DNA of 64,000 nt. It comes from Nannocystis bainbridge (GTDB taxonomy: Bacteria > Myxococcota_A > Polyangia > Nannocystales > Nannocystaceae). Where the stretch lies: assembly GCF_028368995.1 (NCBI RefSeq), contig NZ_JAQNDL010000003.1, positions 480,001-544,000 on the forward strand. Reading direction: 5' to 3'. Below, piece by piece: positions 30,042-61,462 of the stretch. The translations under genes were made by a program, and so were the position numbers. The notes beneath the pieces are model-generated. The model was given only the letters and a program-made list of their open reading frames with translations, made no database searches and was not told the origin of the DNA. Each line of letters opens with the position of its first letter. Position 1 is the stretch's first letter.

Positions 30042-30563
30042 TCAAACGTCCATCACGGGTCGGACCTCGTAGTCGGTCCGCCCCAGGTGCTTCCGAGCCC
30101 ACTCGGTCGCTTCGCCCGGGGTCCGGAACATCCCGCGGGTGAGCACGGAGAACGGGCCCGACGCCTCGGTCGGGTGCCACATCGTGCGGCCCGTCTTGGT
30201 GTACGGGATCACGACCGTGTAATAGGCCGGCGCTTCGCCCCCGCGCCCGCTCCCGCGGGCGGCCTCCGCCGCCATCTCCAGGCCCGTCGCCAGGGCGTCG
30301 GCGAGGTCGTCGGTCTGATAGCCCTCGTCCTCGGAGCCGCCGGCGACGGCGACGCGGTAGTCGTTCCCATCGTACTCGAGTGTAACCCCGACCGCTTCGA
30401 GCTGCGCGCGGGCGCGGTCCGCCGTCAGCCGAGCGGCCCGCGTTGCCGACCTCGCCGACGACTTCGCCCGCTTCGCCGGCGACTTCGCCCGCCTCGCGGC
30501 GGACTGGCGCTTCTTTCCCAAGGTCTTGACGGCGGCGCGGCGGGCGGCGTTCGTGCGAGGCAT
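30042..30563 (-). CDS. Hypothetical protein with histone-like basic N-terminus
   Basis: AARRAKSPAKRAKSSARS followed by two small globular segments; GCCATAT motif upstream. Confidence 0.75.
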   Translation of the reverse strand: MPRTNAARRAAVKTLGKKRQSAARRAKSPAKRAKSSARSATRAARLTADRARAQLEAVGVTLEYDGNDYRVAVAGGSEDEGYQTDDLADALATGLEMAAEAARGSGRGGEAPAYYTVVIPYTKTGRTMWHPTEASGPFSVLTRGMFRTPGEATEWARKHLGRTDYEVRPVMDV

Positions 30564-30749
30564 CGGCCGATATGGCGCGAGATGTCCTTGTGGCGCCGGC
30601 CGAGCACGATGGCGAACCCCGCGCGCCGCAACCGGCCAGGCTGCGGCCCGGGCGGTGCCAGCCGCGAAGGATCGGCGCGAGCTCGAGGACGCGGCCTTCG
30701 GCCTCCGTCCAGCCCGCGCAGATGCCGGCTCGCTGCGCCTGCCTGACCC

Positions 30750-31478
30750 TCAAGCCCAAGCGGTCCGCCAGGATGCGGGGATCGCCATGCCGCCCGTGTA
30801 ATGCCAATCCGCGCCGCCGTCCTTCAGCCCGAGCTGATTTATCGCGTACTCCCCGATCGACCTCCAAAGATCGGGACCCGGGCAATTGCTCTTTTTCGCT
30901 TCCCACTGACGATGCGCGTACACGTGCGTGATCGACGGGTAAAGCTGCCGGAGGCCGGCGATCAGCCTCCGGCCCGCGTTGACCTGCTGGGGTGCATCCT
31001 GCAGGTGATTCGCCCCGAAAGCCTCGGGCTTCCACCATTTTCCGTCCGCGCTTGGATAGTTGCCTTCAAACTCGATCGTGATCGAAAACGGGTTCGCCAG
31101 CGACGAGCCAAACCGCATTTGCTGGATCGGGTCGAAGTTCATCACGACGGAGCCGTCGCGCCTCACGACGAAGTGCGCGCGAACCTCGGCCCATTTCGGA
31201 TTGCTGGGCTGCCAGGTGAAACCCGTCTGATGCAGGACGAGCGCCCGGACATCCGAGGGCGAGCGCCGGCGGCGAATGTATGATTTCGGCGCCTTGCCGC
31301 GGAGGTCGACCAGCGCGACGGGGAGGTCGAGCGGGTTGGGCGCGTCGTCGTCGGGGGCGGGCGCTTGCGGCCCCGGCTGCGGCGTGGGCCCCGGCTTGGG
31401 CGTGGTCTTCTGCGGCGGGCCCGCGAGGGCGAGGACGACCGCCAGGGCGACGGCGAAGCCGACGAGCGAGCGAGACAC
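30750..31478 (-). CDS. N-acetylmuramoyl-L-alanine amidase (Amidase_2) with N-terminal signal/anchor
   Basis: LVLHQT, AHFVVRRDG, SITIEFEG, HVYAHRQ, SNCPG Zn-amidase motifs. Confidence 0.9.
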   Translation of the reverse strand: MSRSLVGFAVALAVVLALAGPPQKTTPKPGPTPQPGPQAPAPDDDAPNPLDLPVALVDLRGKAPKSYIRRRRSPSDVRALVLHQTGFTWQPSNPKWAEVRAHFVVRRDGSVVMNFDPIQQMRFGSSLANPFSITIEFEGNYPSADGKWWKPEAFGANHLQDAPQQVNAGRRLIAGLRQLYPSITHVYAHRQWEAKKSNCPGPDLWRSIGEYAINQLGLKDGGADWHYTGGMAIPASWRTAWA

Positions 31479-31558
31479 GCCCGATATGGCCGGCGCGGAC
31501 GCCGGCGCGCCGCTAGGCTAGGAGCTTGCGCACGAATCCATGCGACGCGGGTTGAGCG

Positions 31559-32434
31559 TCAACGAACAGCGGCGAGGAAGCGCAGGGCGCGTTGGGACGC
31601 ATCTATCTCCGCCGCCATCACCTTCCGCAAGAATGAGGGCAACCCATCCATGGTGACGACGTGGACGAACGTGTCCTTCTCGGGATAGTGCGCGCTACCC
31701 ACGGTAAAGCGGACTAGGGCGTGGTCCACTGGCTCGAGCTTCAGCCCGTCGGGTCCGTCTACGGCGGCGAGCAAGTTTCCGTCGAGCACGATCAGCGGCA
31801 CGACGACGGCGAATATCCTCACCTCTGTCTTTTTGTCGCCCTCGACGACGCATAAGGGTTGGATCTCGGCGGACGCCTTCGCCACCTTCACTGCGGCCTC
31901 AAACCAGGCATCCGCTGCCTTGTCGGTTCTGTGTTGATGGATCGAGGTAGACAGATGCTGGGGGACCAACGACATGCCACAGAAGGCGTCGTCGAGAGCG
32001 AGGACGTCACCCTTTGTGTCGCGAGGGTGAGCCCCACCGACCGGAATTTTCGCCAGTTCCCGGTCGAACCACTCCGGAAGTTCCGACTCGATGGTCCCCC
32101 GAGGGTCGAACATGTCTGGCGGCAATTTGTCCCCGAGGATCCATATATAGCCGCTCTTCACTTCTCCGACGATTTGGTGGTGGAACTCTCGAGCGTCCTT
32201 CAGACCGCCTATGCGCTGGGCAAAGATGTCCACCTCTCGGGTCGTACCGCCATTGGCGCCATCCCGATCCAGGTAGTAGAAAGCCCAGCTCTCGAAGCCC
32301 TCATTCGCGAAGATCTTGCGGGCCCTCAGTTCAGAGCCGAATCCGCCCTCGCTCAGCTCATTAAGAATTTGTAGGCGCTCTCCGTCGGCCATGTCCGCCC
32401 ACCGGGCGGGTTTGGGCCTTTTGGGTTTGTTCAT
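31559..32434 (-). CDS. PD-(D/E)xK restriction-endonuclease-like protein (lower-GC cargo)
   Basis: GFGSELRARKIF...YLD...REVDIFA...VGEVKS. Confidence 0.7.
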   Translation of the reverse strand: MNKPKRPKPARWADMADGERLQILNELSEGGFGSELRARKIFANEGFESWAFYYLDRDGANGGTTREVDIFAQRIGGLKDAREFHHQIVGEVKSGYIWILGDKLPPDMFDPRGTIESELPEWFDRELAKIPVGGAHPRDTKGDVLALDDAFCGMSLVPQHLSTSIHQHRTDKAADAWFEAAVKVAKASAEIQPLCVVEGDKKTEVRIFAVVVPLIVLDGNLLAAVDGPDGLKLEPVDHALVRFTVGSAHYPEKDTFVHVVTMDGLPSFLRKVMAAEIDASQRALRFLAAVR

Positions 32435-32548
32435 GGCGGGAGGACACCACGAGAAGTTCTCGCCAGCGACCGGCGCATCGGCGCCTCCGCGTGAGGTACA
32501 TCATTCCTTTCACCCGAGGTGGGCTCGGGCGAAAGTTGCTTCCCCAGC

Positions 32549-32743
32549 CTATCTCACCAGGGCGCCCCGGGGCCCCGTGAAGCGTTCCCGGGGAAGGGCC
32601 TGGCAGGCGAGCACCGCGACTCGCTCCGACGCGCTCGTCGGCCGGCGCCACCACGTTTCGCCCGGTCGCCACACCTGCCAGCCGTGAACGTCGTCGCCGG
32701 CGCCCCATTGGGCCGCCGCGCCGCGGTAGCGGACGCGCATCAC
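32549..32743 (-). CDS. Small hypothetical protein
   Basis: Start overlaps the stop of the upstream gene; Trp-rich, 64 aa. Confidence 0.4.
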   Translation of the reverse strand: MMRVRYRGAAAQWGAGDDVHGWQVWRPGETWWRRPTSASERVAVLACQALPRERFTGPRGALVR

Positions 32744-33717
32744 GGCGGCATCGGCGGCATGTCCTCGCCGCGGTCGAGGCGCTCGGCCAGCGCGGTCAGC
32801 TCACAGTCGCCGTCGAGGATCTGGAGCGCGAGCGTCGCCCCTTGCGCCACGCCGCTCGCCGGGTAGTTGGCGCACAGGCGATGAATCGCCGCGAGCCGGT
32901 CGCGGTACTGCCCGCCGTGGATCAGCATGGCTTTCGCGGCGTCCTCGGGGGTGATCGGCTGGCCGAAGACCTTGGAGAGCTTGGCCGTGACCCCCGCGGA
33001 GAGGCCGAACCCGATCACGCGTCCGATCGGGGAGTCGAGCGCCTCGCCAATGAACGCGCGAGCTTCCTTGATGGTCGAGCCCCAAGAGTCCGCAACGAGC
33101 AACTGGTCGAGCGCCTGGCGGGTCTGCACAATCGCCTGGGCTCCACCGGCGAGGCTGTCGAGCGTCTGGCGGCGATAGTCCGTCGCCCGGGCATCAAGCT
33201 CCCACGCCGCCGTAAGCTGGGCCGATGCGTGGTCTTGACATTTCTTGACGATCCCGATCGTCCGGTCGACGCATACTTCCTCGACCTTCGAGAGCTTGTC
33301 CCATTCGCTATTGCGGCGAGCGCGGAGTGAGCGCAGTTCCTCGCGGGCCTCGGCGATCTGCGCGTCGAGGCGCCCGAGCTCGGCGCGGGCGCTGGCCACG
33401 TCGGGCGCCCCGGCCTCGCCGACAATCTCGACCGCGCTCGCGCTGCCGTCGTCGTCGTCGTCGCCGGCCTGCCCCTCGCAGTACCGGTCGCCGACGTACA
33501 GACGCGGCCGCCCGGCGCGGTGCCGCCGGTTGTGCGAGCGCAGGGTCTTTTCCAGGCGCAGCGCGTCGTCGGGCGTCGTTTCCCAGGTGAGCATGCGCCG
33601 GCCGACGATCGGGCTTCCCGCCTGCGCCGCCTCCCTGCGCCCGGGCTGCGGGATCGTGACGGTGATCCAGACCCGCTCTTCGGCCTCGGCGTCGATCGGC
33701 TCGTCGTGGTCGCTCAC
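32740..33717 (-). CDS. Hypothetical coiled-coil protein
   Basis: VASARAELGRLDAQIAEAREELRSL heptads; GCCATAG 6 nt before GTG 33717. Confidence 0.75.
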   Translation of the reverse strand: MSDHDEPIDAEAEERVWITVTIPQPGRREAAQAGSPIVGRRMLTWETTPDDALRLEKTLRSHNRRHRAGRPRLYVGDRYCEGQAGDDDDDGSASAVEIVGEAGAPDVASARAELGRLDAQIAEAREELRSLRARRNSEWDKLSKVEEVCVDRTIGIVKKCQDHASAQLTAAWELDARATDYRRQTLDSLAGGAQAIVQTRQALDQLLVADSWGSTIKEARAFIGEALDSPIGRVIGFGLSAGVTAKLSKVFGQPITPEDAAKAMLIHGGQYRDRLAAIHRLCANYPASGVAQGATLALQILDGDCELTALAERLDRGEDMPPMPP

Positions 33718-34123
33718 CGGCAACTATGGCCGCCGGCAACGTTGCTGCGCCGGCGCCCCGCCGCCCAACGGGCGGGGCGCCGCCGTCTGCGAGCGTAGGA
33801 CGCTCTTCGTTAACTAGTTAATTCCGTAAAGCAGATCGCGCGCGCGCGGTCAGACCGCCGCGGCCGTGGACGCGAGCTTCCGGCGCCGGTGACGTCGCAA
33901 CACTCCAGGAACGCGGGCCACGCCGCGATCTGATGTCGCAGGTTCGTGGACGCGCGCTCTGGGCAGGGGTCGCAGTGCGGGCCGAGCCGCAGTCAACCCC
34001 CACGCGGGGCCCGGGAGCGGACCGCCGGTCGCGACACCTCACGGCCCACGGCCACCGGTGCGATCTCCCTGCGCAAGCCGGAACCCTTGCGGTAGCGGCG
34101 ACGCGTCCGGTACCGTCCGCGCG

Positions 34124-34384
34124 GTGTCCTTCCCCCTTACAACCGAGGATTTGGCGAAATTGGCCAATCTCAGCATACCCACCATTCGGGAATGGCGGAC
34201 GCTCGGGCTATTCGTCGGGGTCAAGACGACGAAGAAGGGCGGAAGCGGTGGGGTGCGGATCTTGTGGGCGGCCTCGGCTGCGGACAGGGTGGCGGAGATC
34301 GTGAAGCTCAAGGGCGAGGGCTGGGGTAACGACGCCCTGCGCGAGAAATTCGAGGCAGAGGCGAAAGCGCAGCAGAACGGCTAG
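34124..34384 (+). CDS. MerR/Xis-like HTH protein
   Basis: LTTEDLAKLANLSIPTIREWRTLGL; TACCGT 7 nt before GTG. Confidence 0.8.
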   Translation: MSFPLTTEDLAKLANLSIPTIREWRTLGLFVGVKTTKKGGSGGVRILWAASAADRVAEIVKLKGEGWGNDALREKFEAEAKAQQNG

Positions 34385-34633
34385 TTACCCCGCGTTCGGC
34401 GGCAGCCGGCGCTCGACCTCACACCGAGGCCAGCCGGACGCAACAGCCGCAGGACGCGCTCGCCCATGTGGCGCTCGTCCGACAGGACGGCGAGCTCGAC
34501 GCTCGAGTCGGCCTCGCCGCGCGTCGATCGTCAGCGGCCGAGGCGCCACACGCGCACGCCGCGCGCCAATTCGCGCAAGGGTGCATGCCCTCCGCTTGGC
34601 ACCTCGTAGAGGCTCAGTTATCCTGTGCAAACG

Positions 34634-34837
34634 ATGCCGAAGCCGCCGGACAGATTGCTGACAAGAGTCAAAGAGGTCATTGGGGACCACCAACCGATCG
34701 GTATGTTGGAAATCCTCCGCGCGATCACCCCTACTCCAGAACAGGAGACCCGAGCTGCGATCGAGCACTTGGTCCAGCGTGGTGAAATCGGGTTCGACGT
34801 TCAAATGAAATTGCGGGCAGATTCAGCCAGCCGGTAG
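34634..34837 (+). CDS. Small winged-helix-like protein directly upstream of the dGTPase
   Basis: PIGMLEILRAI...ETRAAIEHLVQRGEI; same lower-GC composition as the dGTPase. Confidence 0.55.
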   Translation: MPKPPDRLLTRVKEVIGDHQPIGMLEILRAITPTPEQETRAAIEHLVQRGEIGFDVQMKLRADSASR

Positions 34838-34845
34838 GATTGCCA

Positions 34846-36093
34846 ATGCGCAATGGTCGATTCTCCAACGCGGCCGGCCAGGACCAACGGAAGGACTTCG
34901 CCCGCGATCGGGACCGCATCCTTTACTGCAGTGCCTTTCGTCGTCTCGCGGGGGTCACTCAAGTGGCCAGCGCGTCCGAAGGTGTCCTGTTTCACAATAG
35001 GATGATCCATAGCCTCAAGGTGGGACAAATTGCGCGTCGGCTTGTTGAGCAGGCGCTGGAGCAGAATAAAGCGCTAGATATCGATCCAGAGGTCGCCGAA
35101 GCCGCTGGGCTGGCTCACGACCTTGGCCATCCACCCTTTGGCCATATCGGAGAGGAGACCCTTAGCGAGCTACTAAAGGAACTCGGAGATCCTGAGGGCT
35201 ATGAAGGTAATCCTCAGTCCTTCCGAATTCTTGTGCGACTAGCCATCCGTTTCGACGATACGCCCGGCCTGGACCTCACGAGGGCTACCCTGGCCGCCGT
35301 CATGAAATACCCGTGGCTACACAAGAAGGATGATCCGAAGAAAGGGCGCAAATGGGCAGCGTACCACTCGGACGAACCAATGTTCAAGTTCGCGCGTGAA
35401 GGGCACGAGGCAGATCGCCCCACGCTTGAGGCCCAGATTATGGATTGGGCAGATGATATTGCCTACTCCGTGCATGATCTCGAGGATTTTCACCGAGCAG
35501 GGATGATTCACTGGTCGCAGATTCAAGAGAAGCTAGAGCTTGAAGCAATCATCAGCGGGGCTCGCGCCAAGTGGCCCGATGCTCCAACAGACGCGGTCAA
35601 ACGACTTGAGGACGCAGCCCAACGGCTCTTCGCCATACTTCCAAGCCAAATGCGGGAGCCATTCGTAGGTAATGCAGATCAAAGACGAAAGCTCCGTTGG
35701 TGGACATCGACGTTGATTGGTCGGTACGTGCAACAAACCAGTGTAGAGGAAAAGCGGGTCACTAAACCTCCGGAATTCGAGGACGAGGTTCGCTTCCTCA
35801 AGCAAATTACATGGCGCTACGTGATCGAGAACACAGCCCTCGCTGGCCAGCAATTCGGCCAGCGAAAGATACTCAGCGAATTATTCCATGATCTCCACGA
35901 GATAGCCCGGTCGCCCAAACTGCGTAATGCCTTTCCTCATCGTAGCCGACATCTTCTCTCAGAGGAGGGAATTCAATACCCTCGTGCTGTGGCCGATGCG
36001 CTAGCGAGCATGACTGAAGCCGAGGTCGTGGCGTTGCATATGCGCTTGCGCGGAATCGATGGCGGTACGGTGCTGAACCCTATCGTTCGTTGA
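34846..36093 (+). CDS. dgt: Deoxyguanosinetriphosphate triphosphohydrolase (dGTPase, HD domain)
   Basis: RDRDRILY..AFRRL..VTQV, HNRMIHSLKV, LAHDLGHPPFGH.GE, EGNPQSFRI, KYPW, MDWADDIAYSVHDLED. Confidence 0.95.
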   Translation: MRNGRFSNAAGQDQRKDFARDRDRILYCSAFRRLAGVTQVASASEGVLFHNRMIHSLKVGQIARRLVEQALEQNKALDIDPEVAEAAGLAHDLGHPPFGHIGEETLSELLKELGDPEGYEGNPQSFRILVRLAIRFDDTPGLDLTRATLAAVMKYPWLHKKDDPKKGRKWAAYHSDEPMFKFAREGHEADRPTLEAQIMDWADDIAYSVHDLEDFHRAGMIHWSQIQEKLELEAIISGARAKWPDAPTDAVKRLEDAAQRLFAILPSQMREPFVGNADQRRKLRWWTSTLIGRYVQQTSVEEKRVTKPPEFEDEVRFLKQITWRYVIENTALAGQQFGQRKILSELFHDLHEIARSPKLRNAFPHRSRHLLSEEGIQYPRAVADALASMTEAEVVALHMRLRGIDGGTVLNPIVR

Positions 36094-36152
36094 GAGCGCC
36101 TGCGAGAGTTTGCCGCGCCTAAGCGCGACGACCGCGCCGCGGCCTGCCCGCG

Positions 36153-36857
36153 CTACACAAGCCGCGGCTCGCGGCGATGGCCGCGAAGCGCGGCCCGGAC
36201 GAGAGCGTCGTCGGGAGGCAGCGCCACCCGCAGATCCAGGATCAGCGAACCGGCCTCGCCCTTGGCCGAGCGGATGCCGCGGCCGCGCAGGCGCAGCGGC
36301 CGAAGGGGGGCGTGAGGCTGGCCCGGCAGCCGGACCGCCACGTCGCCCCACGGGGTCGGCGTCGTGATCTCCGCCTCCGTGATCACGTCATACAAGCTCA
36401 CCTCCAGCTCCCCGCGCAAGTCGAGCCCGTCCCGGCGCCACGGACTGTAATCGACCTCCACGACGATCGCCGGCGCCCGCCCGCCTCCCCGGTCGAGCTC
36501 GACCGGCAACACGTCGCCCACGTTGACCCCGGGCGGCACGCGGACGACCCCGCCGAACCCGCCATAGTCCACCAGCATCGAACCGCCGCGCCACGCCGCC
36601 GGGCCCGACAGGCGCAGATTTACGATCCGCGTCGCCCGCGAGGGAGGCGGCGGAGCGGGGGCCGGCGGCTCCGGTTGCTCGAAGAGCGCAAGGGCCTGTG
36701 ACAGGCGGCGGGCTTCCTCGGCCGCCGCGGCGTCATGCGGCCGCCGGTCCGGGTGAACCGCGGCGATCCGTCGCCGGAAGGCTCGGCGCCCCTCCTCGGG
36801 GGAGGCGTCGACGGGGATCCCCAGAATCCCCGCGGCCCATGCACGATCATTCGTCAT
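36153..36857 (-). CDS. DnaJ/CbpA-like protein (J-domain plus DnaJ C-terminal domain)
   Basis: ILGIPVDAS.EE.RRAFRR....HPD; RRDGLDL..ELEVSL; LRLRGRGI. Confidence 0.85.
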   Translation of the reverse strand: MTNDRAWAAGILGIPVDASPEEGRRAFRRRIAAVHPDRRPHDAAAAEEARRLSQALALFEQPEPPAPAPPPPSRATRIVNLRLSGPAAWRGGSMLVDYGGFGGVVRVPPGVNVGDVLPVELDRGGGRAPAIVVEVDYSPWRRDGLDLRGELEVSLYDVITEAEITTPTPWGDVAVRLPGQPHAPLRPLRLRGRGIRSAKGEAGSLILDLRVALPPDDALVRAALRGHRREPRLV

Positions 36858-37119
36858 AGGCCCCCCGAAACAGTGCGAGCAATCGGAGCCCCCGCGACCG
36901 CGCCCGATCCAGCACCGCCGACAGATCGACGCCGCGCGCGCTGGCCAGTAGCAGGGCGAGATACACCTCGCGGACGAGGCCCCGCGCCTCGCGCCGCCCC
37001 GCTTCGAGCCTGCTCACCGTGCAGCGGTCGAGCCCGAGCAGGTCGGCGAGCTCGCGTTGCGACAACGGACCCCCGCGCCCGAGCCGAGCGCGAGCCCGGC
37101 GAATGTCATTAGGCTGCAT
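36847..37119 (-). CDS. XRE-family HTH protein
   Basis: LSQRELADLLGLDRCTVSRLEAGRR. Confidence 0.88.
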   Translation of the reverse strand: MQPNDIRRARARLGRGGPLSQRELADLLGLDRCTVSRLEAGRREARGLVREVYLALLLASARGVDLSAVLDRARSRGLRLLALFRGAYDE

Positions 37120-37127
37120 CCGCGGCG

Positions 37128-37191
37128 ATATGGCGCCGCAGGGTGCGACTGTGCCGCCCGCACGGCCGTCCGCGCGGCGCGCTCGCCAGAT
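37128..37191. promoter_or_regulatory. Back-to-back pair of GCCA(T/G)AT putative late promoters
   Basis: GCCATAT (-) at 37128-37134 and GCCAGAT (+) at 37185-37191, each 8 nt before an ATG. Confidence 0.65.
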
Positions 37192-37199
37192 CCGGCGAA

Positions 37200-37625
37200 A
37201 TGGCTGCCGCAGCAGGAACCAAGTCCGAGCAGATCGAGAAGTGGCGCGATAAGTACCACGACGCGCGCAAGGCGGCGGAAGAGACCATCGCCGAATACAA
37301 GAAGAAGGCGGCGCGCTTCTGGAAAGAGGACATGCCGACCGTCGCCAAGTACGGCGGTGCGGGCGCGCTGCTCGGCTTGTGGGCCGGCTCCTACCTTTAC
37401 GACAAGATGGCCGAATGGTTCGGCGCTGATTCGTATCTGGCCCTCTACGGGACCGCCGCGCTCGGCGTGGTCGTCGTGGCCTTCGCGCCGAAGATCGTCC
37501 GCGGTGCGGTGAGGAAGACCGAACAGCAGGGTCCTGCGATTGCCGCCCTTTCGGGCTTTGGCGTCGGTCTGGCGGGCATTGGGGCCTGGCGGGCTTGGCA
37601 GGACTACAGCGCGACGAACGCCTGA
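37200..37625 (+). CDS. Three-TM membrane protein, candidate virion membrane protein
   Basis: Charged N-terminal helix and three Gly-rich hydrophobic segments; first gene of the + strand module. Confidence 0.8.
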   Translation: MAAAAGTKSEQIEKWRDKYHDARKAAEETIAEYKKKAARFWKEDMPTVAKYGGAGALLGLWAGSYLYDKMAEWFGADSYLALYGTAALGVVVVAFAPKIVRGAVRKTEQQGPAIAALSGFGVGLAGIGAWRAWQDYSATNA

Positions 37626-37653
37626 TTTTCGCTGGTGATTGGAGATAACATCA

Positions 37654-38634
37654 ATGTCGGCACCGATTGACATTCCGGCAATTGCGGCGCAACTCCAGGC
37701 GCAGGGTTACAACGACGCCGCGCGGATTCTCCTCGCCGGCGGCGAGGGTGCGCGGGCAATCTGCGCCCTTCTCGGGAACGGCGCGTCGCCCACGCCGTCG
37801 CTTTCCAACGCACTCGCGGCGGGCGGCAACACGGCGAGCATGCAGCAGCAGCAGCCGGCCGCGCCCGCTGGGGGCTGCGGCTGCGGCCCCCGCGGTGGCG
37901 GTGGCGGCTGCGGTGGCGGTGCGTGCGGCCTCAAGGGGCCCTGCGTCACCACGGATTCCTACGTGTGCGCGACGCCGCCGGCGACGCAGCCGTCGACGGC
38001 TCCTGTGCCCGGCGCTCCGTCCGCGGTCCCCGTCGTCGTCCCGCCGTCGGTGGGAAGCTGGAATTGCGAGACCGTGCGGCCGGATCTGGCGCCTTGCGAG
38101 GTCGGCCGCATCCGCCGCGAGGACAAGCTCATCACCGTCAGCGAGGCCACGCTCGCCGGTCCGCTCGCCGCCGGCGACACGATCGGAACGATCATCGCGG
38201 AGGTCGGCATTTCGCACAATCTCTGCGTCGACTCCCTGGCGGTGGAGATCGAGACCAACGGCGTTCGCGTCCCGGTCACGATCGGCCAGGTCATGCTACA
38301 GGGCGAGCGCATCGCCCAGGACCCCCAGGGGCCCTACGTGCATGTCTGGGAGTGGTCCGAGCCGGAGCGTCCGGACTACGTCGGGATCACCGACTCGCGC
38401 TGCGCCTGCAAGGAGCTTTGCGTGTGCGTGCCCGCCGAGGGCCGCGCGCGGCTCACGTTCGATCTGCCGAGCGCCGTCGCGGGCGGCTCTACGCTCGTCG
38501 TGACCGTCTGGGGCCGCCGTACGTGCTGGCTCACCTCCTGCGGTCCCTGCCCGCCGTGCCAGATCTGCGGCCAGGCGACGATCACGCCGGCCGAGGACGC
38601 GCTGGCGCCGAACACCCTCTACGCGGTCGCGTAA
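37654..38634 (+). CDS. Cys-rich protein with beta-sandwich-like C-terminal domain; candidate jelly-roll capsid protein
   Basis: GGAG SD, 19 Cys, alternating beta pattern ending TLVVTVWGRR, downstream hairpin; ORF is solid, function inferred. Confidence 0.6.
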   Translation: MSAPIDIPAIAAQLQAQGYNDAARILLAGGEGARAICALLGNGASPTPSLSNALAAGGNTASMQQQQPAAPAGGCGCGPRGGGGGCGGGACGLKGPCVTTDSYVCATPPATQPSTAPVPGAPSAVPVVVPPSVGSWNCETVRPDLAPCEVGRIRREDKLITVSEATLAGPLAAGDTIGTIIAEVGISHNLCVDSLAVEIETNGVRVPVTIGQVMLQGERIAQDPQGPYVHVWEWSEPERPDYVGITDSRCACKELCVCVPAEGRARLTFDLPSAVAGGSTLVVTVWGRRTCWLTSCGPCPPCQICGQATITPAEDALAPNTLYAVA

Positions 38635-38673
38635 TCCACGGGCCCGCCGCCGGGCCCGCGTGAGGTAATAGCA

Positions 38674-39342
38674 ATGACTCCGATTGTGATTGGCGGCCTC
38701 TTGCTGTTCCTCTTGTTCGGGGGTCAGAAAAAGGCGGGCAATACCGTGAAGCCGGACCCCGGCTTCGCGCCGCGGCCCGAGCTCGAAACGCTCGCCTGTG
38801 CCGACGTGCTGGCCACGCGGCCGGAGGTTCATGCCGGGCTCGCACGCGGGCTGATCCCCTGGCGCGATTGGCTCGTCGCCGTCGCGTTCAACCGGGTTTA
38901 TGGCGTGTGGCCCGATCCGGGGAACGCGGCGCACGATGCTCGCGCGAAGCTCCTGGGGACCTGCGTAGATGCCGGCCTCGACGACGCGCCGCCGCCGCCC
39001 AACTCGGATCCGGAGCTTCCGGAAATCAGCCCGGCGCCGACGCCGGGATCGTTCTACGCGATCAAGGGCGGCGACGTGCTCTTCGCTATCTCGTCGGCCG
39101 CGTACGGGACGAAGTCGGGCACGCCGGCCAACTATCAGGCCGCGAAGAAGATCAACGACGACCCCTATAACGCCCGCTTCAAGCGGCCGATCGCGGAGGT
39201 CGCCCCGAACGAAAAAGGGCTGTGGTCGGCGCGGATCACCTTCAAGCCCGTTTTCGGGTCGTTCTTGCAGCAGTACGCCGACGCGGCGGACGGCAGCCAG
39301 GGCGACGGCGGCAACTTCGCAATCCTCAAGATCCCGGAGTAA
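38674..39342 (+). CDS. N-terminally anchored protein with LysM-like domain
   Basis: MTPIVIGGLLLFLLFG anchor; FYAIKGGDVLFAISSAAYG...ILKIP. Confidence 0.7.
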   Translation: MTPIVIGGLLLFLLFGGQKKAGNTVKPDPGFAPRPELETLACADVLATRPEVHAGLARGLIPWRDWLVAVAFNRVYGVWPDPGNAAHDARAKLLGTCVDAGLDDAPPPPNSDPELPEISPAPTPGSFYAIKGGDVLFAISSAAYGTKSGTPANYQAAKKINDDPYNARFKRPIAEVAPNEKGLWSARITFKPVFGSFLQQYADAADGSQGDGGNFAILKIPE

Positions 39343-39347
39343 CGGCC

Positions 39348-40004
39348 GTGGCGCTGCTTCCAGTCGACAAGGCCGCATATGCCGTCGTGCGCACGATGAT
39401 CGCCGCGGGCGCTGCGGCGTGGGACGCGTGGGCGAAGAGCGGCGAAGCGAAGTGGCCGGACTCGAAGCCACACACGCGCGAGCTCGCGGACACGATCTTT
39501 CGCTACGTCCCGCGCATGGCGGTGCAAATCCCCGCGGGCGAAGACAACTGCCCGACCGAGCAGGACCGAGCCACCGGCACCTGCACGGCGATGCGCTACG
39601 ACCGCGTTTTCTCGCCGCAGAACCGCCACCGGCTGATCGCGGCGCTCGACGCCCGTAGCAGCGTCGAGGTGCGCGCGGCATTCGCCGCGGTGCCCACGGA
39701 CGGCGGCGATCTCGAGTGGTGGGCCACGGCGCTCGCCGCCGGAGCCTTGATCGCGATCGGCGGCCTCCCGTTCGCCGGCGCCGTCGTGGTCAAGGTCGCG
39801 GGGTTCTTGCTGGCCGCATGGGCGGCCTATGGGTTTGTGACGCCCAAGACGCCGAACGGGCAGTCGCTCGCGCAGAAATACGCAGCCCTCGTCGGTGACG
39901 GCCTCGAAGCCATCCTCGCCGGGGCGAACTCGGTCCTGCAAGTCGCACTCGTCGCCGCAGGCGGATATTTCCTCTACCAGCTCTTCTTTTCGGGGTCGCG
40001 GTGA
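39348..40004 (+). CDS. Membrane protein with C-terminal anchor
   Basis: TM hairpin plus terminal VALVAAGGYFLYQLFF. Confidence 0.75.
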   Translation: MALLPVDKAAYAVVRTMIAAGAAAWDAWAKSGEAKWPDSKPHTRELADTIFRYVPRMAVQIPAGEDNCPTEQDRATGTCTAMRYDRVFSPQNRHRLIAALDARSSVEVRAAFAAVPTDGGDLEWWATALAAGALIAIGGLPFAGAVVVKVAGFLLAAWAAYGFVTPKTPNGQSLAQKYAALVGDGLEAILAGANSVLQVALVAAGGYFLYQLFFSGSR

Positions 40005-40816
40005 GCCTCATCCTGTGGGGGCTCGGCCTGGCCGTGGTCGCGACCATGGCCACGCCGCCGGCGAAGGCGGCCTCCGTCCCGCAGGCGCCCGCCGGGCCGC
40101 CGCTCGCGCCGCCGTCCGGCTGGGACGACGCGCTGCCGCTTCCCACCGCGGCCGACGTCCAGGGTTTCGACCTCCTGACCAACTGGGGCGCGACTCCCGA
40201 ATCGTTGCGGCCGTTGTTCGCGCTCGTGGAAATCAAGTCGCGGATCGCCGGCGCCGCGCGCTTCCTCGCGCTCGCCGCCCGCCGCGAGAGCGCGTTCGTT
40301 CTCACCGCGCACAACAAGAGCTCCGGCGAGCGCACGGCGAGCGCGAACGCCTACAGCAACAACAAGGCCAAGCGGCCCCCGCTCGTGTACGGCGCAGCGG
40401 CGGCGGCGTGGGGGTCGGGCGGCCTCTTCGGCCTCCTGGGGCCTTATTTCCTGTGGACGGGGATCCAGGAATTGGGCGGTGCGGCGCCCCTCCTGGGCTC
40501 GCCGCCGGAGATCATGTTCCTCCCGCGGGTCGCGGCCTTCGCCGGCGCCGTGTACATGCAGCGGATCCTGGCGAATTACCGCGTCGACGACGTGGCCGAC
40601 ATCAAGGTCGGCTGGGCGTCCCCCTCGCTGCTCGGCAACGGCCGGGGCGGCGCCACGTACAAAAAGGTTCGCGCCCGGTTCCTCGAGGACTCCGCGAAGC
40701 TGGGGATCAAGCTGAATGCGCCGCCGACGCTCCCCCCGAAATTGAGCGCCGCAGCGTGGCCAGGTGTCGCTGCCGTCTTCGAGGGCGTCGTCGGCACACC
40801 GCCGCGGCTCGCATGA
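40001..40816 (+). CDS. Membrane-anchored lysozyme/SLT-like protein
   Basis: N-terminal TM; FLALAARRESAF (catalytic ES) and GGLFGL resembling the SLT GLMQ motif; GTGA overlap. Confidence 0.6.
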   Translation: MSLILWGLGLAVVATMATPPAKAASVPQAPAGPPLAPPSGWDDALPLPTAADVQGFDLLTNWGATPESLRPLFALVEIKSRIAGAARFLALAARRESAFVLTAHNKSSGERTASANAYSNNKAKRPPLVYGAAAAAWGSGGLFGLLGPYFLWTGIQELGGAAPLLGSPPEIMFLPRVAAFAGAVYMQRILANYRVDDVADIKVGWASPSLLGNGRGGATYKKVRARFLEDSAKLGIKLNAPPTLPPKLSAAAWPGVAAVFEGVVGTPPRLA

Positions 40817-40840
40817 GGCGCGCGCGCGCCATATCCGGCC

Positions 40841-43429
40841 GTGCCGCCCGCGAAGCTGAAGGGATACCCGAAGGTCTACAGCGTCGGCCGCTGGCGCGGC
40901 GCCGCCGCGGTACGCCGCGAGCACGGCGGCCAGGGAACGCTTACCGAGTTCTCGATCCAGCTCGCCCCCGACAGCGAGCCGCGGAAATTCGTGGGGCGGG
41001 GGCCGACGCCTGGCCACCGGCGGACGGATGCGATCCGCCAGGCACGCGAGGCCGCCGGCTTGCCCGCCCTGCCGCTGCGGCCTCGCAAGCCCCGCCAGCC
41101 GGGGCCGAGCGTCGCGGCGGCGTTGCAGGCCCCGGAGCGAGCGGAGACGCGGCGCCGGCTGGTCAACCGCGTGCGGGAGGTCGACGCCGACCACGCCCTC
41201 GCACTGGACCTCGAGGGCGCGGCCTGGCACCTGCTGGCGGACGCTGGCGACCTCGTCCTCGTCGGCGACGACGGGGAGCAGGTCGAGCGCTACCCCGGCC
41301 CGGAGAGCGCCGCCGACGAATTGCTGCGGCGCTTCGGCCCGGCGGTCGTCGACGCCGCCCGCGTGCGTCGTTTCTTCAACGCGCACGAGAAGGCCTATCC
41401 CCGCGGGTGGATCAAGCGAGCCGCGGAAGACCGCGCGCGCCAGCGCGACCGCGACCGCGACCGCGACGACCTCTTGCGGCGCATCGTCGACGCGCTCGCG
41501 GCCGGGCCGAAAAACGAGAGCGTGCTCGGGTGGACCTTGAAAGCGGACACCCGGGACGTGATGGACGCGATCCGGCTCGGCCTGGGTCGGAGCGTGCTGC
41601 GCTACGCGCCTACGTTCAGCGCGGGGGGCGGCGACCAATTCGAGCGCAACGATCAACCGTGGGGCCCCGGGCCCCGCGGCCACTACCCCTCCGGGCCGCA
41701 GCCGCCGCCGCGCTCGGCGCCCGAGGTTCAAGGCTCGGACGCACCGGCGGAAGCCCGCGCGGCGCGGAAGAAGTCGGCGAAGCGAAAGAAGCCGTCCAAG
41801 CGGAAGAAACCGGCGAAGCGAAAGAAGCCGGCCACGCGGAAGCCGAAGCCCCGGCCTCGCTGCGCGGGCTCGGTGCGGGCGGTGGTCGAGCGGGCCGAGA
41901 AGCTGAAAGCCCGCTATGACAACCTGGTCGCCGAACGGGCGGCCCGTCTAACAACGCGCCAGGCAAACCAGCGCGATGGGCTGATCGCGCGGCAGGCCGA
42001 GCGCGAGAAGCACCTGGCGGCCCTGGTGACGGGTCCGAAGAGCCCAGGGGCCCGGCGCCTGGCCGAGGCCGAAAAACGCCATGGGAGCCGCCTGCGCGCG
42101 CTGGAGGCCAAGCACAAAGCGGCCCTGGCCGCGCTGCCGCGCGCGGTCGAGTGCGAGATCCTCGGCGGAGCGCGGGCGCGGCGGGCCGTCGTTCGCGGCT
42201 GCGCCGACCTGTGCGGCCTCAACGTGGCCGGCGGCGTCGGCGGCGACGCCACGACGATCGCATTGCCGTCCGCGCGCGGGACTCCGCGTGTGTTGCCCGC
42301 GCGCTTCGTGCTCGTAGACGCCGAGACGCTGCGCCCGAGTCACGACCCGATCAGCTTTGAGCCGCGCGCCGACTACCCCGACGAGACGCAAGAACGGCGG
42401 TACGAGGATGACCCGGCCGAAAAATACAAGGTCGACATGATCGGCCAGAACATGATCCCCGGGTTGGTGCAGAACACCAACTCCGGCGCCGTGGACGGGA
42501 CGCCGATCATCACGATCGACAAGATCGTCTTGAGCGGCAACGGGCGGGCCATGGGCGTGATCCGGCACTACCGCCGCGGGCGCACGGTGCTTTCCGACTT
42601 CCTGCGCATACAGATTCAGATCTTCGGCATCGACCCCCGCGCGCTCGCCCGCGTGAAAAACCCTGTGGTCGTGCGCGTGATCGACGTGCCCGCCGCGGAC
42701 CGGGCGAGGCTCGTCCGCGACTTCAATACGGGCCTCACGCAGCAAATGTCGGCCGCGGACGAAGCCGCCGCGCTCGCCCGCCAGCTCCCCCCGGACCTAC
42801 CGGCGATGCTGCGCGCCGGCGGGGCCGACGAGGGGCTCGGACCCTACCTCGCGAGCAAGGCGAGCGCGCCCCTCGTGGGCGCCTTGGAGCGGTCGGGCTT
42901 CATCAACCGCGCAAACCGGGCGCGCCTGATCAGCGACGACGGCCTGCTCACCCAAGAGGCGCGTGACGACGTGGCGCGGATGCTCGTCGCCGCTGTGTTG
43001 CCGCTCGACCTCGCGGAGCGAAGCCCCGAGCTCGCCCGCGCTGCCGAGCGGTCGGCCGCGGCCTGGCTCGTCGCCGCGGGCGCTGGCTCGGCCTGGGATG
43101 TCCGCCCGACGCTGGCCGCCGCCGGCCGAGACTATCTGTCCCTTCGGGCATCCGGCGCGTGTCTCTCGCGTTGGCGGGAGCAAGGGAGCATGGAGCCGCG
43201 GCAGGCAACGGGCCCCATGGCAAGCACCATGCTCGAGATCCTCGACCTCGCCGCGTCACGCCCCGTCGTCTTCTCGAAGATCGCGGCCGCCTACGCCAAG
43301 GCGAGCCGCGCGGGCGGTCTCTTCGGACAGGCGGATCCCGGCGAAGCACTGCGCCAGGCCGCGGCCGACAACCACGTCGACCCGGCGAGCGCCAACAGTC
43401 GGCGTCGCTGCGCACGCAAGGCGGCCTGA
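40841..43429 (+). CDS. Large protein with K/R-rich linker, coiled coil and DdrB-like ParB-superfamily domain
   Basis: FVLVDAETLRPSHD, YPDETQER, GTPII..DKIVLSGNGR, FGID, NPVVVR, DFN. Confidence 0.8.
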   Translation: MPPAKLKGYPKVYSVGRWRGAAAVRREHGGQGTLTEFSIQLAPDSEPRKFVGRGPTPGHRRTDAIRQAREAAGLPALPLRPRKPRQPGPSVAAALQAPERAETRRRLVNRVREVDADHALALDLEGAAWHLLADAGDLVLVGDDGEQVERYPGPESAADELLRRFGPAVVDAARVRRFFNAHEKAYPRGWIKRAAEDRARQRDRDRDRDDLLRRIVDALAAGPKNESVLGWTLKADTRDVMDAIRLGLGRSVLRYAPTFSAGGGDQFERNDQPWGPGPRGHYPSGPQPPPRSAPEVQGSDAPAEARAARKKSAKRKKPSKRKKPAKRKKPATRKPKPRPRCAGSVRAVVERAEKLKARYDNLVAERAARLTTRQANQRDGLIARQAEREKHLAALVTGPKSPGARRLAEAEKRHGSRLRALEAKHKAALAALPRAVECEILGGARARRAVVRGCADLCGLNVAGGVGGDATTIALPSARGTPRVLPARFVLVDAETLRPSHDPISFEPRADYPDETQERRYEDDPAEKYKVDMIGQNMIPGLVQNTNSGAVDGTPIITIDKIVLSGNGRAMGVIRHYRRGRTVLSDFLRIQIQIFGIDPRALARVKNPVVVRVIDVPAADRARLVRDFNTGLTQQMSAADEAAALARQLPPDLPAMLRAGGADEGLGPYLASKASAPLVGALERSGFINRANRARLISDDGLLTQEARDDVARMLVAAVLPLDLAERSPELARAAERSAAAWLVAAGAGSAWDVRPTLAAAGRDYLSLRASGACLSRWREQGSMEPRQATGPMASTMLEILDLAASRPVVFSKIAAAYAKASRAGGLFGQADPGEALRQAAADNHVDPASANSRRRCARKAA

Positions 43430-43663
43430 GTGCCCGAGGTCGCCGTCGCCGTCGCGCTCCTGGTCGCGCTCGTCTTCTTCCTCGGCGGCGTCGCGGCCCT
43501 CGTCGCCGTGCTCCGCGTGTTGCCGCGGCGCGTGGTGGCGCCGTTGTGCGCGGCGATCGACCGCGCGGGCGAGCGGCTCGACTCGCTGGAGCGGCGCCAC
43601 GGCGAGCGCCTCGACGCGCTGGAGCGAGACGCGCGCGCGTGTGCTGGCCGCACGCCGCCGTAA
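43430..43663 (+). CDS. Small TM plus coiled-coil protein (holin-like candidate)
   Basis: Long hydrophobic N-terminus, then ERLDSLERRHGERLDALE. Confidence 0.6.
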   Translation: MPEVAVAVALLVALVFFLGGVAALVAVLRVLPRRVVAPLCAAIDRAGERLDSLERRHGERLDALERDARACAGRTPP

Positions 43664-43686
43664 GGGTCCCGCGCGCCAGATCGGCC

Positions 43687-44172
43687 ATGCTTCGCGGACC
43701 GTTTAACGTGTATGTCGACGAGGCCGGCAATCAGAGCCTCAAGCCGGCCGTGTCGGGCGGCGGCGGTCCGCCGCGGTCGCTGCTCCAGTCGCTGGAGAGC
43801 AACATCCGGATCGTGATCGCCCGCTCGGCGATCGAGTACGTGTCCGGCTACTTCGCCGACCTCACCGCAGCCGGCAACGACGACGACATTTACATCCCCG
43901 CACCGATCACCGGGGCCCTCACGTCGATCCGGATCGTCGCCGGGTTCCAACCGTCCGCGAACATGCCGATCCAGGCGGCGATCGGCGGGACGAACGTCAC
44001 CGACGGCCTCGTCACCATCCTCTCGACCGATGGCGCGGGCACCGTCCGCAGCGCCAGCCCGACCGGCCAGAATGCGGTCACGGCAGGCACCACCGCAATC
44101 CGGCTGCGTCACAACGCGACGAACACAGTCGCCGGTCACGCCTGGGTCGTTCTCGGCTTCTCGCACGGGTGA
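43687..44172 (+). CDS. Putative virion vertex/spike protein A
   Basis: Paralog of the next gene; Gly hinge then beta-rich domain; GCCAGAT upstream. Confidence 0.7.
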   Translation: MLRGPFNVYVDEAGNQSLKPAVSGGGGPPRSLLQSLESNIRIVIARSAIEYVSGYFADLTAAGNDDDIYIPAPITGALTSIRIVAGFQPSANMPIQAAIGGTNVTDGLVTILSTDGAGTVRSASPTGQNAVTAGTTAIRLRHNATNTVAGHAWVVLGFSHG

Positions 44173-44176
44173 CGCC

Positions 44177-44641
44177 ATGTCGGGGCATTTTCAGGTCTTC
44201 ATCGACGAGGGCGGAGCTTCGGTCCTCAAGCCCGCGGCGGCCGGCGGCGGCGGCGGTCCTTCGGCGGCGACGATGCGCGCGCTGAACGCCAGCGTAGCGA
44301 CCGCCGTTGCGCGGTCGGTCGAGTGGGTCGGCGGGTTCCTGCCGAATCTCACCCTTGGCTTTTCGACGGCGCGCATCTTGCCTCCGCGGAATTCGACCAT
44401 CGTCGCGTGCAACATGGCGATCGACTTCAACCCGACCGGGTCCATCCGGCTCTCGTTCCGGGTCGGGCTGACGATCTTCGGACAGGTGGTCTTTACGGCG
44501 TCGGACACGGCTGGCACCGTCAAGCCGGTCGATCTGGCGCCCGGCACCACGATCGCCGGGCTCCAGAGCATCGAAGTTATCGACAGCGGAATCGCCAACA
44601 CCAGCGCCGGACACGGACACGTGTTTTTCGGGTTCGCGTAG
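44177..44641 (+). CDS. Putative virion vertex/spike protein B
   Basis: Shares GxFxVx(V/I)DExG...LKPA..GGGG, (V/I)ARS.E, D.AGTV, AGH..V..GF with the previous gene. Confidence 0.7.
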   Translation: MSGHFQVFIDEGGASVLKPAAAGGGGGPSAATMRALNASVATAVARSVEWVGGFLPNLTLGFSTARILPPRNSTIVACNMAIDFNPTGSIRLSFRVGLTIFGQVVFTASDTAGTVKPVDLAPGTTIAGLQSIEVIDSGIANTSAGHGHVFFGFA

Positions 44642-44683
44642 GTGCCCGCGGCACAAGCGGGGGGACAGCGGCCATATGCGCCG

Positions 44684-45061
44684 ATGCTCCCCCGCCGCCT
44701 CGCGTTGTTGCTCCCCAACGCGCTCACCCTGATCGGTCTCGTCCTCGGCCTCGCCGGCGCGCTCGCTCTCCAAAGGGGGGAGGTCGCGGGCGCCGCCAGC
44801 CTCTTGGTTGGTGGCCAGGTCGCGGACGTGCTCGACGGGGTGGCCGCGCGTCGGTTCAACGCGAGCACGGCGGCGGGGGCGCTCTTTGACTGGCACGCCG
44901 ACTGCGCCGTCGCGGCTGCCGTCGCGTTCGCAGCCGGCGTCGCGTGGGCGATCCCGGTGTTCGTGCTCGTGCAGGCTTGGGCGCGCGTGCATGACGAGCG
45001 CGTGAGCGGCCGAACCGCCGCCATGCTCGGCGTCGTGGGGCTGGCGCTGGGGGCGTGGTGA
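44684..45061 (+). CDS. Minimal CDP-alcohol phosphatidyltransferase
   Basis: PNALT and the full signature DxxDGxxAR-x8-GxxxDxxxD (DVLDGVAARRFNASTAAGALFDWHAD). Confidence 0.88.
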   Translation: MLPRRLALLLPNALTLIGLVLGLAGALALQRGEVAGAASLLVGGQVADVLDGVAARRFNASTAAGALFDWHADCAVAAAVAFAAGVAWAIPVFVLVQAWARVHDERVSGRTAAMLGVVGLALGAW

Positions 45062-45156
45062 TGGAGCGGCCCGGCCCTTGGGAAGCGGTAGCGGAGGGTG
45101 CGATCTTCGCGTTCGCTATCTTCATCCTCCTCGGCTACGTGCTCGCCGGCGCATGA
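45061..45156 (+). CDS. 31-aa single-TM peptide
   Basis: MERPGPWEAVAEGAIFAFAIFILLGYVLAGA; start and stop overlap the neighbours (TGATG, ATGA). Confidence 0.55.
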   Translation: MERPGPWEAVAEGAIFAFAIFILLGYVLAGA

Positions 45157-45674
45157 CGACCCTCGACGCGCACCCCCGGCCCGCGCCGCCCTGGCTGGCC
45201 GCGATCGCAATGGCCGTCGCGGCGTATGTCGGCGCGGACCGCTGCGTCATGGCGCAGGCGGAGCCGGCGCCCGTTGACACGCGCGAGTCGAGCACCGACA
45301 ACCGGGACGCCATGAGCTTCCCCCTCGCCGCCGCCCTGGTGTCGCTGCTCCTGCCGTTCGCCCTCCTCTCCGCATGCCGCGAGCCCGAGCCGGTCGAGCT
45401 GCCGAAGGACGGCGAATCCTGCAAGGTGGTCGACGACGGCGACGCGCCGTGCGCCGAGGGCCTGACGTGCAACACCGGCGACGGCTACCTCGGCAAGGAC
45501 GGCCACTGCGCGACCGCCTGCGAGGGCGACGGCGAGTGCGAGGACGGGCAATTCTGCAACGACGAGGGCGCTTGCACGTGGACATGCAAGGCCGAGGTCG
45601 ACTCCTGCCCGGTGGCGTCCGTCGAGCTCTTCTGCACGGCTGACGAGGGCGGCTTCTGCGTCGGCGCGGTCTGA
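45153..45674 (+). CDS. Cys-rich lipoprotein (alternative start 45312)
   Basis: LLSAC lipobox followed by disulfide-rich repeats. Confidence 0.75.
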   Translation: MTTLDAHPRPAPPWLAAIAMAVAAYVGADRCVMAQAEPAPVDTRESSTDNRDAMSFPLAAALVSLLLPFALLSACREPEPVELPKDGESCKVVDDGDAPCAEGLTCNTGDGYLGKDGHCATACEGDGECEDGQFCNDEGACTWTCKAEVDSCPVASVELFCTADEGGFCVGAV

Positions 45675-45757
45675 GCGTCGGCACGGTGTGAGCGACGCGG
45701 CGTCCGCGGCGTCGCGTCCGAGCGACGCAGCGAACGCCGGCCGTGCCATATCCGGCC

Positions 45758-55828: not shown

Positions 55829-55832
55829 CCGT

Positions 55833-55886
55833 TCACCATGTGTCTAAATGGTCCTGTTCTATAGGTCATGTCTGTTCGGACATGGC
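55833..55886. repeat. Degenerate 14-bp-periodic array inside the element
   Basis: Cores at 55853, 55867, 55881 (plus 55837, off phase). Confidence 0.55.
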
Positions 55887-61247: not shown

Positions 61248-61362
61248 GCCGCCGACCTGGGATCGGCTCGCTCGGCTCGACCGACCTCCGCGGCAAGTCG
61301 AGGGCGGTCGCGCTCGCGCTCGCTTGCTCGCCGACGCGACGCTCGGAGCGCTCGGCGGAAGG

Positions 61363-61398
61363 TGCTGGGGATGTCGGAAGCTCGCTACAACCCCGGCA
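61363..61398. other. attR: TGCTGGGGATGTCG-GAAGCTCG-CTACAACCCCGGCA
   Basis: Matches the attL arms; adjacent to the integrase. Confidence 0.9.
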
Positions 61399-61457: not shown

Positions 61458-61462
61458 TCGAA

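Follow-up and report, generated by a model that had tools for sequence, protein, structure and literature searches.

In the genome of Nannocystis bainbridge (assembly GCF_028368995.1), an integrated mobile element lies within a stretch of 64,000 nucleotides (nt) of contig 2 (C2:480001-544000, hereafter the window; positions without a contig prefix are counted from its first base), and nine of its genes carry the box GCCA(T/G)A(T/G) (GCCAKAK) 5-8 nt before an ATG or GTG start codon that lacks a Shine-Dalgarno (SD) sequence. A GC-rich second box, CGGCrCA, stands in a fixed register upstream of the first. Chance as the source of the nine composite sites is excluded. The reading that we put forward, and to which we give an even chance of being right, is that the boxes are promoters private to the element and read by its own sigma factor, with mRNAs starting at or next to the start codon. 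From sequence we infer the box as a promoter, a sigma-like protein of 171 amino acids (aa) as its reader and the start codon as the place where the mRNA begins. The first-pass annotation of the window had likewise proposed a private -10 element producing leaderless mRNAs; this found partial support in the geometry of the sites, the sigma-like gene and the contrast with a sister element. The statement that no -35 region is conserved did not hold, and the designation of the genes as late is unsupported.

Positions of the boxes and start codons

Spacing is given as the number of nt between the end of the box and the start codon, and the stretch scored comprised 15.2 kb of a genome of 11.05 Mb (71.5% GC, 5 contigs). 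All nine boxes of the first-pass annotation were recovered at their positions and on their strands. Each was co-oriented with an ATG (five sites) or GTG (four sites) at 5, 5, 6, 6, 6, 6, 6, 8 and 8 nt (mode 6), GGAG, GAGG and AGGA occurred in none of the nine spacers, and the open reading frames (ORFs) thus opened encoded 90-862 aa. The layout radiating both ways was also found as described: up to 37134 the sites are on the minus strand (four), and from 37185 on they are on the plus strand (five).

On the minus strand, unit 1 (30561..30598; upstream box 30592-30598, GCCATAT 30570-30576, spacing 6 nt, ATG 30563) opens the gene for a 173-aa basic protein with an isoelectric point of 10.0, and unit 2 (31476..31512; upstream box 31506-31512, GCCATAT 31484-31490, 5 nt, GTG 31478) that for an Amidase_2 protein with an N-terminal hydrophobic segment. 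Unit 3 (33715..33752; upstream box 33746-33752, GCCATAG 33724-33730, 6 nt, GTG 33717) encodes a 325-aa coiled-coil protein with 29% identity to a protein of the sister element, and unit 4 (37117..37156; upstream box 37150-37156, GCCATAT 37128-37134, 8 nt, ATG 37119) an XRE-type helix-turn-helix (HTH) protein followed by a DnaJ-like gene. On the plus strand, unit 5 (37163..37202; upstream box 37163-37169, GCCAGAT 37185-37191, 8 nt, ATG 37200) encodes a 141-aa membrane protein, unit 6 (40806..40843; upstream box 40806-40812, GCCATAT 40828-40834, 6 nt, GTG 40841) an 862-aa ddrB-ParB protein, and unit 7 (43653..43689; upstream box 43653-43659, GCCAGAT 43675-43681, 5 nt, ATG 43687) a 161-aa protein of no family. 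Unit 8 (44649..44686; upstream box 44649-44655, GCCATAT 44671-44677, 6 nt, ATG 44684) encodes a 125-aa CDP-alcohol phosphatidyltransferase-like protein, and unit 9 (45723..45760; upstream box 45723-45729, GCCATAT 45745-45751, 6 nt, GTG 45758) a 493-aa protein of no family. The names "spike A" and "large anchor protein", given earlier to two of these products, found no family support, nor could the label of a late regulon be sustained for a set of nine genes that takes in an XRE regulator and a ParB/DdrB-like protein.

The assigned start codons are supported by the sister element, where the XRE proteins align from M1 to M1, the starts of the coiled-coil and CDP-transferase proteins agree to within 1-2 residues, and both membrane proteins open with MAAAA. 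Internal genes of the units are often preceded by SD-like sites, as at 38674 and 39348. At the boxes at 40828 and 43675, the gap between the preceding gene and the next is only 23-24 nt.

Enrichment of the composite site and its restriction to the element

The bare heptamer was not enriched: the window held 23 copies against 26.2 ± 5.1 in shuffled sequences, the genome-wide rate was 13.7-16.9 per 64 kb, and of the 15 copies in the region, six lay away from gene starts, near the background of about 3.9. The composite of box, 5-8 nt and ATG or GTG gave 243 raw matches on both strands of the 11.05 Mb, which corresponds to about 0.32-0.33 expected per 15.2 kb; nine were found in the 15.2-kb stretch, and four in the best other window of the genome (Poisson P = 7.7e-11, or about 6e-8 when corrected for some 727 windows). 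The form GCCATAT followed by 5-8 nt and RTG occurred 12 times genome-wide, six of them in the stretch. A stricter filter, which required a coding-like ORF of at least 60 aa downstream and a non-coding stretch upstream, left 39 matches in the genome with eight in the stretch; the XRE site was lost at the coding-score step because its ORF is short. In a scan of the genome with a position weight matrix (PWM), nine of the 11 best matches were the element's own sites, and the two outsiders opened no gene.

For comparison with host genes, 417 unambiguous starts were collected, defined as the first ATG or GTG within 45 nt of an in-frame stop in a frame of good coding potential and with no further start candidate for 30 codons, a definition that avoids choosing starts by their upstream sequence. 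The box stood at 5-8 nt before two of the 417, both genes of this element. The first-pass annotation had named equal frequency of the motif at host genes as one observation that would speak against a private signal; before the 415 starts outside the element, the box was found at none.

Copies of GCCATAT outside the element often lie within a recurring word, ACATGTCC-N4-GGCCATAT, for example at C1:945318, C1:1304157, C1:3111173 and C2:1475298.

The upstream box and the divergent gap

The earlier view that no -35 is conserved was refuted by the GC-rich CGGCrCA. Counted from the heptamer, columns -22 to -17 read C (8/9), G (9/9), G (6/9), C (8/9), G (5/9) and C (7/9), followed by A or C. The information content of these six columns summed to 3.74 bits, compared with a null mean of 2.0-2.2 (P <= 2e-4 by resampling); this value was reached in none of 5000 random sets drawn from the element and in one of 5000 sets drawn from upstream of other genomic heptamer copies. 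The gap of about 15-16 bp between the two boxes is the geometry of sigma-70-family promoters. A loose search with the two-box pattern returned 137 matches and was uninformative because the upstream box is ordinary GC-rich sequence in itself.

The XRE and membrane-protein genes (units 4 and 5) diverge from a gap of 80 bp in which their two boxes stand back to back, 50 bp apart. Within this gap, neither a TAnnnT element nor a match to the sigma-70 consensus was found. The gap must hold two promoters, yet only the boxes in it are distinctive, which supports the boxes as promoters. Canonical sigma-70 promoters were sought for the units and rejected, none being present in the core; the two consensus matches in 29.5-47.5 kb both lie in the area of a low-GC HD-domain gene. 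A sigma-54 reading (GG-N10-GC) was also discarded, the recurring GG being present at some sites only and 9 nt, instead of 10, upstream of the GC in the box, as was one of upstream hairpins acting as terminators or structured promoters, since strong folds are usual at 70% GC and no shape was shared.

The sister element

A sister element was found on contig 3 at about 1.536-1.570 Mb (C3:1536000-1570000), with homologues in the same order and orientation. Amino acid identities were 29-31% for the coiled-coil protein, 41% for the DnaJ-like protein, 53% for XRE, 28% for the membrane protein, 41-47% for a 331-aa protein, 41% for a 222-aa protein, 44% for the CDP-transferase and 39-40% for a DnaB helicase; the ParB-like proteins share 57-58% over their C-terminal two thirds and differ wholly in the N-terminal third.

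In the sister, a different box, GGCGAG[G/T] (GGCGAGK), stands 7-9 nt before seven gene starts (about 1.536-1.553 Mb), with T in the three leftward and G in the four rightward genes, and a moderately conserved TGGGCGC lies 13 nt above it. Five of the seven genes are homologues of genes with a box in the window (XRE, membrane, coiled-coil, ParB-like and CDP-alcohol transferase). GCCAKAK was found before none of the sister-element genes. The sister box occurred at 7-9 nt before two of the 417 unambiguous starts, both of them sister-element genes.

An unrelated element of the same genome, at C2:806-831 kb, has ordinary AGGAG/GGAGG sites, so that private boxes are no general habit of elements in this host. 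This element shares one protein (63% identity) with positions 40001-40816 of the window.

The sigma-like protein of the element

The candidate reader is a 171-aa sigma-70-family-like protein encoded at 55888..56403 on the minus strand, immediately upstream of the gene for a DnaB-like replicative helicase (54470..55843, minus strand). The neighbourhood is the same in the sister element, whose DnaB gene is adjoined by the gene of a 229-aa sigma of the extracytoplasmic function (ECF) type. The 171-aa protein weakly matched Pfam Sigma70_r2 at E 1.6e-3 and NCBIfam TIGR02989 and TIGR02937 at 5e-4 and 4.4e-3, respectively, and the syntenic sister protein with 38% identity over 82 aa of region 2 (E 2e-8); the latter passes the sigma70-ECF cut-off of TIGR02937 (49 bits vs 42.9, E 5e-13).

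A word-indexed search with the 171-aa protein returned the protein itself only. An exhaustive phmmer search of 1.84 billion representatives (E <= 1e-3) gave 11 non-self relatives with E values of 5.7e-6 to 3.7e-4; all 11 matched sigma models and seven passed the TIGR02937 cut-off, with the FliA/WhiG models often the best for region 2. In the AlphaFold model, region 2 is predicted with confidence: residues 11-93, which form four helices, have a predicted local distance difference test score (pLDDT) above 93. All 49 Foldseek matches listed (ranks 1-50) were sigma-factor entries, and the N-terminal domain of SigE was aligned at a template modelling (TM) score of 0.81 and a root-mean-square deviation of 1.9 Å. 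Only about 20 residues separate regions 2 and 4, which leaves no room for region 3 and corresponds to an ECF-type (group 4) build.

Upstream of this gene (56404-56450, minus strand), a degenerate box, GCCAGGG, is followed by a good SD sequence and has 12 bases in common with unit 5's left flank; it could reflect weak self-activation or coincidence.

Leaderless layout of host genes

In leaderless genes of Actinobacteria and Deinococcus-Thermus, a TANNNT -10 element lies 6-7 nt before the start codon. The first-pass annotation had reported TAnnnT at the position of the box in host and cargo genes, and this was confirmed: TAnnnT stood exactly 6 nt before 56 of the 417 unambiguous starts (13%), compared with zero or one at the registers -11 to -6, which lie one to six bases nearer the start. 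Within the window, 10 starts have it, including 21493, 23200, 19231(-), 10752(-), 2326(-) and 63205(-). The host element was mostly TAGnnT, and T was enriched near -35 in the same 56 starts. The excess of TAG may stem partly from the nearby in-frame stop required in choosing these starts; the in-frame registers 3 nt closer gave only one case, so that the peak of TAnnnT is real. C occupied position -1 in 69% of the 417 starts, and SD-like cores preceded 107 of them. The host thus appears to use both SD-led and leaderless starts.

With TAnnnT of host genes at the same register, the geometry of the box is that of host leaderless promoters, and the element box ends in T where the host element does (-7 at spacing 6). 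The same box-start distance, the lack of an SD sequence and the ATG or GTG starts are shared with TANNNT leaderless genes in general, from which the sites differ in their hexamer, CCATAT, CCAGAT or CCATAG; GCCAKAT keeps the final T and has CC for TA. CC where TA is expected leads us to propose a different reader.

According to PMC4633059, a 5'-terminal ATG or GTG suffices for leaderless translation in mycobacteria, and TTG and CTG do not. In unit 3, a TTG (33723) directly abuts the box and GTG 33717 lies 6 nt off; on the mycobacterial precedent, the GTG is preferred. The records returned by a literature search on leaderless transcription start sites in Myxococcus included no report of leaderless genes in myxobacteria, and no report of leaderless translation in the phylum of Nannocystis was found in the literature searches made.

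Proposed mechanism

In the mechanism that we propose, GCCA(T/G)A(T/G) and CGGCrCA would together form the core of a promoter class private to the integrated element. The RNA polymerase core of the host, joined by the element sigma (55888-56403, minus strand), would bind there, the heptamer acting as the -10 element, and transcription would start 5-8 nt past the box, at the ATG or GTG itself or a couple of bases away from it. The nine units would then begin as leaderless or near-leaderless mRNAs, which the host appears able to translate, and the genes inside the units would be translated from ordinary SD-like sites or by coupling. Each of the two sister elements would have its own sigma and its own two-part promoter at its start codons.

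Several observations weigh against this mechanism. Sigma-70-family factors flip out the base at -11, which is usually A; if the T of the box is placed at -7, C falls on this position, and if its first A is put there instead, the predicted start moves 1-2 nt into the start codon at spacings of 5-6 nt. With spacings between 5 and 8 nt, the nine mRNAs cannot all begin exactly on the start codon. The 171-aa protein falls below all curated family cut-offs, its C-terminal three helices, a region-4-like tail, are poorly modelled (pLDDT 43-69) and, by the alignment, about 24 residues short, which is awkward beside a conserved upstream box. No Foldseek match reached E <= 1e-3, and the best match of the 171-aa protein alone among solved structures was WhiG at a weak E of 0.42; the fold match is moreover not independent, because the alignment behind the model contains true sigma factors. 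For the sister element, the raw count of the box is ordinary (eight in 14.5 kb vs a genome maximum of nine), because the word is common in coding sequence, and it is the comparison with unambiguous starts that speaks for the box; GAGG lies within the box in four of seven cases, which could partly be ordinary ribosome-binding sites, and the co-variation of sigma and box rests on one pair of elements.

A wider conjecture is that Nannocystis translates a sizeable share of its genes leaderless and that rare elements exploit this through minimal sigma factors of their own and promoters fused to the starts, co-resident sisters keeping mutually exclusive pairs of sigma and box (GCCAKAT vs GGCGAGK) as orthogonal switches that fire without cross-activation. 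We offer it tentatively and rate it somewhat short of even.

Alternative explanations

The boxes might instead be sites of a regulator of the element, the central XRE protein, which would silence or gate the units in the manner of stoperators and set an element-specific immunity. We regard this as unlikely. The sites are asymmetric and recur in many copies at gene junctions, each pointing in the direction of transcription; between the sister elements, the XRE proteins are only 53% identical and differ at several positions of the presumed recognition helix, as the boxes differ too; and the XRE gene itself has a box, which would permit autoregulation. Yet a spacing as tight as 5-8 nt before the start codon is expected of a start-site signal rather than of a roadblock, seven conserved bases would be a short target for a specific repressor, and a protein with a single HTH domain and 90 aa should bind as a dimer to a site of two-fold symmetry. 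The units would, besides, still need promoters; no canonical one was found, and a sigma-like gene is present.

Promoters for short-leader or leaderless mRNAs could also be read by an alternative sigma of the host, which is distinctly unlikely in our judgement. Geometry and statistics fit this possibility as well as they fit an element sigma; the 171-aa protein misses the family cut-offs and is shortened in its C-terminal domain, and a large myxobacterial genome encodes many regulators. A second sigma-related ORF, moreover, lies on the left side of the element: the protein of 28485-29291 (minus strand), the candidate here, matched Sigma70_r4_2 only (E 1.2e-5, 25.3 bits vs a cut-off of 25.7), its gene is directly upstream of a Ser/Thr kinase gene (both within 26864-29291, minus strand), and a 66-aa fragment with 80% identity to it was found at C2:about 792.3-792.5 kb. 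No host regulon is visible, however, the box being at none of the 415 host starts and nine of the 11 top PWM matches being in the element, and the sister element, although it has the same layout with another box, lacks a counterpart of the 28485-29291 protein.

That the box acts on RNA, as a ribosome-recruiting site, a protein-bound translational operator or an endonuclease processing site that trims polycistronic RNA to leaderless messages, is likewise distinctly unlikely: the box does stand at the SD position, 5-8 nt before the start and with no SD sequence, the sister box contains SD-like GAGG in four of seven cases, and the gaps of 23-24 nt at 40828 and 43675 make read-through transcription likely, but GCCAUAU is not complementary to the anti-SD sequence, the fixed-register upstream box and the back-to-back divergent pair fit DNA recognition by polymerase better, and among the proteins shared by the sisters, no RNA-binding or nuclease candidate was found.

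Comparison with known systems

The closest precedent for promoters read by an element sigma is offered by phages phiEco32 and 7-11, whose own sigma factors gp36 and gp47 read late/middle promoters (PMC8948821); there, diverged sigmas serve dissimilar promoters at similar genome positions, transcription starts 6-9 bp from the box, and a one-piece box is recognised by the sigma without region 4, a two-part box with a 16-bp spacer by the other. As in those phages, a sigma-70-family protein of the mobile genome's own, here a putative one, is accompanied by a short private box before several gene clusters. The present case differs in being an integrated myxobacterial element without recognisable virion genes, known here from sequence alone, in having a box that abuts the start codon, which would give leaderless messages, and in occurring as two sister systems in one genome.

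The -10 region of sigma-28 (FliA/WhiG) promoters is given in PMC12784957 as (-15)GCCGATAA(-8). The boxes resemble sigma-28 promoters in having GCC followed by an A/T-rich core (GCCATAT is GCCGATA minus one G), and depart from them in an upstream box that is CGGCrCA and not of TAAA type and in a register relative to the start that is off by 1-2 nt. A sigma-28 system was rejected, the upstream box being unlike TAAA and the 171-aa protein having no room for region 3.

The stoperators of cluster A mycobacteriophages are, according to PMC9283540, numerous repressor sites spread over the phage genome. The boxes are likewise many copies of an asymmetric, element-private site; unlike stoperators, which are repressor sites that stop elongation, they keep a fixed 5-8 nt to start codons, which is not a feature stated for stoperators there.

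Both phage-encoded sigmas that have private boxes and phage messages without a leader have been described before, and no new principle is involved here. A modest extra interest lies in the co-resident sister pair with mutually exclusive boxes and in the host's own leaderless layout. If confirmed, the system would provide a compact pair of promoter and sigma for a high-GC myxobacterium and a second, non-overlapping pair, that is, orthogonal parts where genetic tools are few; the boxes would delimit the transcription units of an element of no described kind; and the TAnnnT 6 nt before 13% of unambiguous starts would be a pointer to widespread leaderless initiation in Nannocystis.

Content and distribution of the element

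From about 16 kb to about 62 kb of the window, the GC content is below that of the left flank, and a gene for a tyrosine integrase (59697..61493, minus strand) marks an integrated element. Other genes of the element include an IS66 insertion, Amidase_2, XRE and DnaJ-like genes and the low-GC HD-domain gene. In the 862-aa ddrB-ParB protein (40841-43429, plus strand), residues 489-717 share 29% identity with the DdrB proteins of phage P1 and P1-like plasmids. Among the element proteins, no capsid, portal or terminase was found with Pfam and PHROGs, and a search of the element gave no Rfam family, no transfer RNA and no clear attachment (att) repeats. The stretch is an integrated mobile element, possibly a prophage, and is assignable to no named kind.

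The family of the element is rare. With the ParB-like protein as query, no related locus was found in genome and viral contigs, and only two of 72 other genomes of the family gave a match, both partial. The 331-aa protein was not found in 72 other genomes of the order or in 400 sampled genomes of the phylum, and a search of 5.8 billion proteins gave two relatives besides the protein itself, one on a contig of 2.1 kb and one on a contig of 9.9 kb. One locus considered as a relative (G035) shares pieces only, has no recurring box and was set aside as a different element.

A possible tenth unit was noted at 22038..22066 (plus strand), in which an upstream box of GACGCA type precedes GCCATAT 22060-22066; its PWM score of 17.8 is below those of the nine. 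Its sequence is close to unit 9, a start codon at 5-8 nt is absent, and two strong GC hairpins come next (to 22140). A small RNA of the element might be driven from there; Rfam gave no match at this site.

Direct repeats of 107 nt (84% identical) at 47685-47791 and 54103-54209 flank 6.4 kb that contain low-GC cargo ORFs and the IS66 set (a TnpB-like gene and a transposase), and the pair may be a duplication or an insertion scar inside the element. The ORF at 22164-23087 contains nine tandem copies of a 24-nt unit (22681-22968) that encode a peptide repeat of MPDLGT type. A 128-nt repeat (93% identical) was found at 22250-22377 and 23345-23472, the latter copy lying within the next gene.

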